From Eledone cirrhosa (Eukaryota): DNA of 64,000 nt. Below the pieces are notes generated by a model that did not search any database, was not told where the DNA came from, and saw only the letters and a program-made list of their open reading frames with translations. The stretch spans positions 37,572,001-37,636,000 of the forward strand of contig OZ024741.1 in assembly GCA_964016885.1 (NCBI GenBank), given 5' to 3'. Positions 25,711 through 54,230 of this stretch are shown piece by piece (position 1 is the first letter of the stretch; each line of letters starts with the position of its first letter). Made by a program: the position numbers and the translations under genes.

Positions 25711-25770
25711 CCTCTCACTCTCTCTCTCCCTCTCACTCTCTCTCTCTCTCTCTCTCTCTGTATATATATA

Positions 25771-25981
25771 TATTTAATTAGAAAGTGAACAACACAATAT
25801 ATAACTACTCCATTACCAAAGGTTTCAGGACGCTAGACAATATTAATATATGTCTAGTTCGTTCATCAGACAGAGATGTAACATCATGAATGAACTAGAC
25901 ATATATTAATATTGTCTAGGGTCCTGAAACCTTTGGTAATGGAGTAGTTATATATTGTGTTGTTCACTTTCTAATTAAATA
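25771..25981. repeat. Inverted repeat: 96-bp arms, 19-nt spacer, 2 mismatches
   Basis: 25771-25866 vs 25886-25981. Confidence 0.95.
25808..25875 (-). ncRNA. Type I hammerhead ribozyme within a fold-back insert
   Basis: Minus strand: CTCTGT-CTGATGA-acgaaCTAGACA...TGTCTAGcgtcct-GAAACC-ttt-GGTA-ATGGAG; base of stem II imperfect. Confidence 0.7.
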
Positions 25982-26037
25982 GCTCTGTTCTATACATAGA
26001 GCACTCTTTTTTCCTTTGCTTTTCCTTTGGAATTACC

Positions 26038-26127
<90 letters not shown>

Positions 26128-37959: not shown

Positions 37960-38525
37960 TATAAATGTGTATATATATATATGTGTATATGTATGCATAC
38001 TTGCATTTATTTATATATATATATATATGAGACCCCAGCAGACAACTGAAGAGGGGGACCTGTCCCTTGTTTGTGATTTCCTTTTATTTCTAAATACACT
38101 TTATCAAGTAACCACTCAGCCCCTTGTTCCTTCTAAATGTTTATATATATATATATATATATATGTATCACCATTTAATGTCAATTTTTTTCCACACTGG
38201 CATGGGTTAGACAAGTTATCCTGTTGTGAGCAATGCTAGATCAGGTGACCATGTCATGCTCATACAGAACCAATTTTGGCTTGGTTTCTACAGCTGGATG
38301 CCCTTCATTGTGCCAATCTCATTTATAGTCAGTGGTGGGTGCTTTTTGTCGTGACACCTACTCGACTACTTTACAATGTGGACTGGGTGCTTTTTGTCGT
38401 GACACCTACACGACCACTTTACAGTGTAGACAATGCTCAAACCACTGAGCCATGCGCCTTCACTATTATATATATATATTTAATACTTAATCTCTATATA
38501 TAATGTGTGTGGGTTTTTTAAATAC

Positions 38526-38559
<34 letters not shown>

Positions 38560-38680
38560 AGGTGAGTTTTATTGTAGTACAATAAAGCAATGCAGATATC
38601 GGATAATAAGCACTCTACAGTTTGTAGGACTGGAGTATTCATAATATATAAGAACAAAAGATGGTTAAAAGAGTTCCATG

Positions 38681-38751
38681 TATTTTATTATGCGCATTTC
38701 AAAAACAAATATCATCATGCAATAATATTTGTGTTTTCATCAGATAAAACA
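38681..38751 (-). ncRNA. Mirror-image type I hammerhead ribozyme in the left palindrome arm
   Basis: Exact reverse complement of 38871-38941. Confidence 0.85.
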
Positions 38752-38870
38752 TGAAGACATGATATGAAGGTTAAAAAACACTTGTGGATAGTTCAGTTTT
38801 AAATCAACATATTGTTGATTTAAAACTGAACTATCCACAAGTGTTTTTTAACCTTCATATCATGTCTTCA

Positions 38871-38941
38871 TGTTTTATCTGATGAAAACACAAATATTAT
38901 TGCATGATGATATTTGTTTTTGAAATGCGCATAATAAAATA
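38871..38941 (+). ncRNA. Type I hammerhead ribozyme, intact core
   Basis: Stem I TGTTTTAT/ATAAAATA; CTGATGA (38879-85); ~16-bp stem II; GAAA (38922-25); stem III A-T,T-A with palindromic loop (ATGCGCAT); cleavage triplet AUA. Confidence 0.85.
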
Positions 38942-39089
38942 CATGGGACTCTTTTAACCATCTTTTGTTCTTATATATATATATATATATAATGAAAAAT
39001 TGAACAGGGACAGAACAGAGAGGCAGTACGATAAATGTTTATTAAATTCACGCTCAGGAGAGTGGGGGGGGGGGGGGGTAGGTGGAGGA

Positions 39090-39125
39090 CGACGTTTCGG
39101 GCATAAGCCCTTCTTCAGGTGAGAG
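39090..39125 (-). ncRNA. Minimal hammerhead motif in the PLE 3' pseudo-LTR
   Basis: CTGAAGA-aGGGC-ttat-GCCC-GAAACGTC; stem I weak. Confidence 0.7.
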
Positions 39126-40443
39126 TTCAAAAGGTGTGTAGGGGAGTGGTGGAGAGACATATAGCGAAAGGAAACGGTGCGAATGAAAAATTAACAAATA
39201 AAGACAAAAATATAATAAATAATAAATAAAAATAAAGCATGATCAAAATACAAGGAATGAGAAAATTTAAAAATAAAGGCATGATCAAAATAAACTGAAA
39301 TTAAAAGGGGGGTAAACGGGTGGTGGAAGGGTGTGGGGTGGGTGGTGGCGGGTGGAGTGGGGAGAGGGAGACGGGGTGTCCGAGCGGGGAGGGCTGAAGG
39401 TGGTGTGTGTGGTTAGGTGTGTGTGTGTGTGTATGTGAAAGTGAGGGTTGGGGGAAGAATGGGGTTGCATGTTCAGGAAGGTGTGTGTGGGGGGTGTTTT
39501 TGTGGGTCGGAGGGTCTGCGCGTGTGTGGATAGGGGGGTGGGGGGAGAGGAATCAGGGAGCTGAGGGTGTAAATATGTGGTGGGAAGCACGTGTGTGTGG
39601 TTTAAGCGTGTTGTGGGTGTGGGTGGCGTGTGGATAAAAAAAATTGTTTTGGGATGTGTGTGTGGGTGAGTTATATAGGTGATGGTGTAAGAGGATGGTT
39701 GAAAGTGGTAAGTTACACGGATGTATGGAGATTTTGGTTGGAAGTCAAAACGCGTGTGGGTAATCCAAGAAGCGGTGGTCGGAAGAGGAGAGATGTGGGG
39801 TGCGCGCGCAACAGGAAGTGGTCAGCAGTGGAAGTGCTGTGGTCAGTTGGTGCTGAGGCAGTGGTCGGAAGGGCATAGTAGCAGTCGGCGGAATGGTAGG
39901 GAGGCGAGGATGGGTAGGTGTGAGAGTTGGAGTGAGGAGGGTGTGTGTGTGTGTGTGTGTGTGTATTAGTAGGGGTGTTAGTGGGATGAGTGAGTGTGGA
40001 GTGGGGAGAGAAGGGTGTGTGTGGTTCTATGGAGGGAGTGTGGTGTACTGGTGTGTGTGTAGTTTGGTGAGGAGGTGTTAGTGGGTGTTAGTAGACGGGA
40101 GGTGGGGAGGGGTGGAATGCAGGTGTGAGTGGGGGTTAGTGGGGGTAGGGTGTGTAGAGTTGGTGGTGTACGAGGGTGTGTGGGTACGTGTGCGTGGGGT
40201 TGGAGGGTGTTAGTGATGTTAGTTGCGTGTGGGGTGGGTGGTGTAAGTGTGTGCGTGTGATAAGGAGGGGGAGGAGGAGAAGAGGGGAGGGAAGGGATGT
40301 TAGTATGTTAGTTGGGGAAGGGTGGTCAGATGAGGGGTGGAGTGGAGGTGTTAGTATTGTTAGTGTGGGGTGGGCGGTGAAAAGGAGGGGTGTGTTAGTG
40401 GTGTTAGTGGGGGATAAGTGGGGGGGAGGGGGGCGGTCGAACG

Positions 40444-41799
<1,356 letters not shown>

Positions 41800-41800
<1 letters not shown>

Positions 41801-42119
41801 TGATTAGTGGTTAGAGCATTCGCCTTGCAATCGAAAGGTTGTGAGTTCAATTCTTAGACCGGGTGATGTGTTGTTTCCTTGAGCAAGACACTTTATTTCA
41901 CATTACTCCAGTTTGCTCAGCTGTAGAAATGAGATGATAGGGACTGGGGTCCCTATCATTCCACTGCAAAGTGGTCGTGTAGGTGCCAAGGAAAAAAAGC
42001 ACCCAGCACTCACTGTAAATGAGGTTGGTGTTAGGAAGGGCATCCAGCTGTATAAATCAAGCCAGAGTCAGTTCCCGTCCCACTCTTGCAAGCAGGGAAA
42101 AGCGGACGTAAAATGATGA
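41800..42119 (+). mobile_element. CORE-type SINE copy
   Basis: Same family, immediately after the long (TA)n. Confidence 0.9.
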
Positions 42120-54179: not shown

Positions 54180-54230
54180 AGAGTATCTGAAGAAGAGTCA
54201 CTCTCATTGAAACTATGAAGTCACTGCCAC
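54180..54230 (+). ncRNA. Degenerate hammerhead motif (PLE pseudo-LTR remnant between microsatellites)
   Basis: CTGAAGA-AGAG-tca-CTCT-catt-GAAAC-tatgaa-GTC; stem I not clearly formed. Confidence 0.45.

Follow-up and report, generated by a model that had tools for sequence, protein, structure and literature searches.

A palindrome in the 64,000-nucleotide stretch of Eledone cirrhosa DNA analyzed here (the window) is the last ~257 nt of a Hydra-type Penelope-like element (PLE), a pseudo-LTR (pLTR) with a hammerhead plus a tail, joined to an inverted, tail-less copy and set in a (TA)n repeat. This hammerhead-bearing 3' end and its inverted partner were probably assembled at insertion from two cDNAs, both halting where a short capped RNA would start, at the centre of the palindrome. 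The parent element, two fixed 3' ends 88 nt apart, a fixed centre, an extra G at that centre and the concordance of the two arms are all observed directly; the fixed centre, shared by at least 1,824 loci, is what is unusual in comparison with known PLE units.

The unit, its parent element and its neighbors

The whole insertion unit (38555–38978, minus strand) covers q1–q258 of the 3' end of the parent, where q1 is window position 38812 and q positions are counted along the minus strand. It consists of an 88-nt tail (q170–q258, ~38555–38643, minus strand), unpaired, present on the left side only and bounded by two putative start sites of reverse transcription; a tail-bearing sense arm (q1–q169, 38644–38812, minus strand); and a tail-less inverted arm (q4–q169, 38813–38978, plus strand). 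As paired, the arms (38644–38809 and 38813–38978) are 166 nt each, 99% complementary and separated by a 3-nt spacer, and the lone mismatch between them, at 38947, is private to the window copy among 30 copies aligned. At the centre junction (38808–38814) the parent context is TC followed by ATATG, with q1 a putative capped transcription start. An AATAAA in the tail (38568–38573, minus strand, q240–245), 13 nt before the element end, is a possible poly(A) signal of a short RNA. The (TA)n target lies at 38530–38557 on the left and at 38972–38991 on the right, and target-site duplications are unreadable inside it. The initial annotation had described a palindrome between two (TA)n tracts with ~85 nt of one-sided extension on the left, and this description stands, with the extension at 88 nt.

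The unit matches the 3' end of its parent PLE at 98%. Long copies of the parent have a ~700-nt 3' UTR and an ORF of ~780 codons, broken in all translated copies, with DKT, YRDD, CNCPIKNKC, a GIY-YIG-like LIY..YFG, and C-terminal CxxC and CxH around E and N; there are 25 homologs at E ≤ 6e-22, which have most of these motifs in common, and the parent has RWI where they show RWK, RWR or RWA. A Pfam scan of one 527-aa parent piece matched 0 families, so the assignment as a reverse transcriptase (RT) with a C-terminal GIY-YIG domain rests on motifs and homologs; a solved-structure search with the parent returned nothing under E 0.2. In one tandem arrangement (L090) the tail runs on into a ~85-nt leader and then a start codon, so both 3' ends lie inside RNA. 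A 4.4-kb inverted pair (L089) has the same two ends, and pLTR sequence lies upstream of the leader in most of 30 full-length loci. The features of an EN+ PLE unit are thus found here: a link to the ORF, a partial-tandem pLTR, an adjacent inverted copy, a one-sided tail and a hammerhead motif in the pLTR. The suggestion in the initial annotation of a very short inverted PLE insertion was therefore right in kind, and its parent PLE has now been found.

The architecture itself is that of a known PLE unit (PMC8557442; PMC8969392). EN+ PLE insertion units share with it the head-to-head inverted copy, the one-sided tail, the pLTR hammerhead and the microsatellite target; they differ in having tails of 30–40 nt, rather than 88, and random truncation, whereas many copies here stop at one fixed point with an extra G (PMC8557442; PMC3846280). 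The Hydra clade, as defined in section 11 of PMC8557442, has in common with the parent the DKT motif, a CxCX5C linker, CxxC and CxH around E and N, a (TA)n target (46/49 loci here) and a hammerhead; placed by motifs alone, the parent departs from it in having RWI for RWK and a unit of ~3.5 kb, with a longer 3' UTR, rather than one under 3 kb.

None of 30 full-length copies begins at q1 (one begins at q-3, and five apparent 5' ends near q-280 may be alignment limits); q1 as a general 5' boundary of full-length copies was accordingly rejected, and an RNA starting there may be short. Many full-length copies (L108, L112–L114, L116, L117, L119–L121) have a tail-bearing inverted 5' piece, the mirror of the short-copy layout. 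A sequencing run under another organism label (X4) contains arm, tail and read-through sequence, so the element family is not confined to the Eledone cirrhosa label.

Next to the palindrome, at the same TA tract, is a 5'-truncated PLE of another clade (38992–41608, minus strand) with a YIDD RT, a CxxC linker, a YVG endonuclease and a frameshift, and with a minimal hammerhead of its own (39118–39088, minus strand). The initial annotation saw no similarity between the palindrome and the pseudo-LTR of this PLE, and this is confirmed: there is no DNA match, the proteins are 24% identical over 168 aa, and a link between them was rejected, only the TA tract being held in common. A second, unrelated palindromic PLE-type stub at 25770–26045 has inverted arms, a ~70-nt one-sided tail and TA/CA flanks; the genome has 2,003 candidate members of its family, most copies bearing hammerhead motifs, although the plus arm of the window copy has lost its CTGATGA core. 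This family has several preferred 5' ends, more spread than those of the q1 family, and a G before the main end in 8/14 arms vs. 0/8 read-through arms, some of these Gs possibly being shared with the other arm. Elsewhere in the window, 54187–54222 (plus strand) contains a hammerhead-like CTGAAGA...GAAA motif, and a 48-nt tandem repeat with tRNA-like SINE fragments flanks the TA tracts at 38336–38431 and 41810–42000, the same SINE lying beside many of the fetched loci.

A fixed centre with rebuilt arms

A search of the 3.0-Gb genome with the 417-nt unit gave 950 candidates, of which 40 were scored, all at 93–100% identity and most at full length. All of the 30 best-matching loci fetched have the same two ends, in (TA)n; having been chosen by full-length match, they are biased toward a shared centre. 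Because of this bias a second search used the tail and outer arm only, and all 40 scored copies (nine also among the first 30) were mapped on a natural parent copy. Breakpoints were read by hand, and for two ends that self-match had lengthened in BLAST the position was taken from the junction text instead. Among these tail-picked copies, 12 read past q1 into the 3' UTR and RT-GIY-YIG ORF of the parent, with breakpoints scattered to q-2133, 10 have shorter arms, and 18 have an arm ending between q-1 and q3 (p = 2e-10 under a generous null). In three of the 40 (L063, L075 and L081) the inverted arm stops at q64–65, the start of hammerhead stem I, a possible site of RT pausing or microhomology.

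Genome-wide there are at least 1,824 palindromes centred on q1 (an exact-pattern count, hence a lower bound) and 2,286 arms reading through it (an undercount, with one subfamily's upstream variant missed). The two outcomes foreseen by the initial annotation, a discrete family with one centre or variable inversion points attached to full PLEs, therefore both occur: some copies are variable and tied to full PLEs, and at least 1,824 loci have the fixed centre. For 49 q1-centred loci, sampled in order of position, the tailed arm ends at q257 in 48 and the other arm at q167–172 in 42; TA-rich sequence flanks both sides in 46.

Comparison of the arms used 46 of these 49 loci, three having been dropped for too short an arm. 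Variants that mark subfamilies are found on both arms in 198 cases and on one in 24; private variants show the opposite distribution, with 10 on both arms and 80 on one. Arm distance is 2.65 within a copy vs. 9.42 between copies (n = 46), and in the first 30 loci subfamily variants were on both arms in 33 cases and on one in 13. The 49 loci have 22 junction types, the commonest (19 loci) being a 4-base overlap at the self-complementary ATAT. The arms are thus rebuilt for each copy, not inherited. They need not be of equal length or of one subfamily: in 7/40 of the tail-picked copies the tailed arm begins only at q10 or beyond although the tail-less one extends to q1, and in 3/40 the reverse holds; one locus (L145) has arms from different subfamilies, with 20 differences, and another (L013) has two sites with arms of different subfamily type. 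More complex arrangements are also present. At L077 (1030–1632, tail-oriented) a single insertion consists of four joined pieces, all bounded at or near q1 and of older and younger subfamily types, and at L012 (1030–1920) two copies from different subfamilies share a single TA tract in tail-to-tail orientation, and the older of them has a small additional hairpin of upstream parent sequence at its centre.

The base before q1 differs from that of the parent in many short copies. In the genome-wide counts, which cover G and C only, it is G on both arms in 127 loci, some of them junction duplications, vs. the parental C in 19, of which ~6 show parent sequence (by eye). The parent base at this position is C in 55/55 read-through arms examined (duplicates included). 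G is present at 10/18 arm ends with multi-base junctions, and G/G copies span at least three subfamilies; the window copy's own centre is without the extra G. The context of q1, TCA(+1)T, resembles the initiator consensus. At some ten centres the start of the arm is repeated as a templated duplication of 6–11 nt, as might result if the end of one cDNA had been extended on the other and had then re-annealed. An extra 5' G is a mark of cap copying in L1 insertions (PMC11702581), and Penelope of D. virilis has an internal, TATA-less promoter (PMC2377424); q1 would on these grounds be a capped transcription start. A look-up of RNA records containing the element listed none, which is neutral as to its transcription.

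Hammerhead motifs

Each arm contains a type I hammerhead motif, at 38873–38939 on the plus strand (cut predicted after 38933) and at 38683–38749 on the minus strand (cut predicted after 38689), with CTGATGA at 38879–38885 and 38743–38737, respectively, and GAAA and ATGCGCAT on each strand. A complete hammerhead per arm had been claimed; the motif is there on each strand, with helices other than described: in the window copy stem I has 6 bp rather than 8, with another 4 possible beyond a bulge, and stem II has 15 bp with one mismatch rather than 16. The stem III palindrome is 8 bp. The loose hammerhead motif has 19 matches in the window, several overlapping, vs. 6.8 ± 4.1 in shuffles, and so is weak evidence alone; Rfam scans gave no hammerhead match, and over the palindrome only microRNA-type hairpins below gathering score; fold z-scores for the isolated arms are only -1.3 and -0.7. 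By themselves, motif counts, Rfam and fold z-scores do not lift the motif above chance. Across 28 distinct copies the three-helix fold is kept in 99.1% of cells (42–64% when slid), mostly via wobble changes and with covariation not above that of shuffles, and the core is intact in 86/92 arms of other copies.

Palindromes centred on q1 (at least 1,824) far outnumber those centred near the predicted cut, at q113–127 (at most 96, a count without a matched control position). Of 50 of the latter listed, ~17 are centred on the stem III palindrome and ~15 have an arm end at q124–126 (by eye); the 12 cut-site-centred loci fetched are real miniature units starting at or beside the cut, where there is also AT microhomology. 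Since q1 sits 124 nt upstream of the cut, the templates would mostly have been uncut.

A transcript of the full palindrome would fold as a single hairpin (-269 kcal/mol), far more stable than the ribozyme fold. The initial annotation saw the RNA as forced into either a 166-bp duplex or a self-cleaving fold. If the source RNA begins at the centre and contains a single arm, as in the two-cDNA reading, that choice plays no part in the spread of the element, and it would arise only in host read-through RNA.

Two cDNAs, the alternatives and their implications

A possible sequence of events is as follows: a promoter in the pseudo-LTR would start a capped RNA at q1, short (~260 nt) and perhaps ended by the AATAAA at q240–245; the element's RT-endonuclease, likely as a dimer, would nick both strands of a (TA)n tract; one cDNA would be primed at q257 and the other at q~169, on opposite target strands; both would run to the cap, often copying it as C; and their 3' ends would anneal by the self-complementary ATAT, or by short added bases, and be filled in to give the head-to-head join, with the hammerhead carried along passively. 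Parts of this scheme have biochemical counterparts. In vitro, a Poseidon PLE from Anolis (PAc) cuts and extends both strands, is a predicted dimer, initiates reverse transcription internally, at the two sites that delimit the tail, and works with uncut RNA, hammerhead cleavage being unneeded (PMC11167929). The two internal starts, the AT-rich target and the dispensable cleavage are shared with the present family; the joining of two cDNAs and the capped 5' end, suggested here by genomic copies, are not described for PAc in the available portion of that account (PMC11167929). Twin priming of L1 likewise joins two RT events at opposite target ends by microhomology and leaves a cap-derived extra G, with the difference that L1 cDNAs copy adjacent parts of the RNA, while here both would copy the same part, giving a palindrome (PMC11702581).

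Two cDNAs are preferred over one because the tail-less arm is the longer in 7/40 copies, because G is found on both arms and because the two arms can come from two subfamilies. If instead a single cDNA ran from the tail to the RNA 5' end, folded back and copied itself as a hairpin, with the endonuclease trimming the second strand at a TA-like site near q169, arm concordance and variable junctions would be explained as well; for PLE palindromes self-priming was put forward earlier (PMC3846280), and for the tail, resolution by a nuclease has been suggested (PMC8557442). With such a snap-back the tailed arm should extend no less far at the 5' end than the tail-less one, an expectation that agrees with the asymmetry of 3/40 copies and is contradicted in 7/40; a snap-back cannot place G on both arms unless a loop of workable length is present, and the commonest centre has no loop; nor can it give arms of two subfamilies, and we regard it as improbable. 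The two-cDNA reading has difficulties of its own. It cannot fully explain why RNA from q1 seldom gives full-length copies. Clear two-template copies are rare (1/46), and the mixed arms of L145 could instead reflect conversion after insertion, or a second insertion event, as even the closest relative of its tailed arm differs from it by 14 changes. An identical perfect overlap at 19/49 centres could also come from a single master, and later central deletions could mimic the arm asymmetry.

Another possibility, about as doubtful as the snap-back, is that the short palindromes act as their own masters: transcription from an internal promoter would run outward from the centre, and the tailed-arm RNA would be mobilized in trans, as a SINE-like PLE passenger, the arms still being rebuilt at insertion. 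The very high number of short copies, the initiator-like context of q1 and the 0/30 full-length copies starting there are all in keeping with this, as is the internal TATA-less promoter of D. virilis Penelope (PMC2377424). Yet both subfamilies examined, a young one and a second chosen as seemingly short-only, have long as well as short forms: among the first 100 matches of the latter ~17 pairs are tight and 15 are long, and read-through was confirmed, so that it was rejected as a short-only candidate and a short-only lineage was not found in these two. It is very unlikely that a retrozyme-like or MITE-like unit is copied as a whole palindrome, its duplex shielding it from its own ribozymes. 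The single-hairpin fold of the full transcript and the fixed ends and centre of the best-matching 30 loci would suit such a unit, but those loci were chosen by full-length match, and if whole units were copied, variants specific to one arm should be passed on together with a single junction, which is the reverse of what is seen; the comparison of arm variants largely refutes it. A retrozyme-like unit, the other reading offered in the initial annotation, fails on this rebuilding of the arm in each copy and on the absence of tandem same-strand hammerheads. Non-LTR retrozymes resemble the present units in being short, non-coding and PLE-related, with a type I hammerhead, but they are direct tandem repeats cut to monomers, whereas here there is an inverted pair with one hammerhead per strand and a 5' end 124 nt upstream of the cut, and retrozyme identity was rejected (PMC7229834; 10.64898/2026.07.22.740005); the available main text of the latter paper makes no mention of palindromes. 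Palindromes beside simple repeats, as this one is, are prone to sequencing and assembly errors. A fold-back artefact has nevertheless a negligible chance of being the explanation, given 1,824 loci, diverged subfamilies and private arm mismatches; in addition, the centre is spanned by short reads from two further samples and by contigs from a third run, with joints running into it from varied places, so the structure, as a class, does not stem from assembly error.

The origin of inverted pLTRs and tails in PLEs has been described as unresolved (PMC8557442), and searches of the main texts in an open-access library turned up no description, for PLEs, of a capped end at a fixed point or of the joining of two cDNAs. 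With more than 1,800 natural junctions sharing a fixed RNA end, snap-back and two-cDNA joining become separable by counting, and a cap-derived G on both arms favors two cDNAs from sense RNA over the earlier proposal of self-priming on an antisense template (PMC3846280). A bolder generalization, unlikely to hold in full, is that PLE insertion consists of two reverse transcriptions whose products are joined head to head, and that the 260-nt capped pLTR RNA has become a self-renewing, SINE-like passenger, each short palindrome carrying the promoter both ways and having its second arm rebuilt at each jump, a condition that would have arisen at least twice here. The family also marks a likely promoter and short RNA, and repeat finders could misfile such palindromes as MITEs. 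The genome would also hold thousands of ~165-bp perfect hairpin templates, which may be sources of dsRNA if read through.
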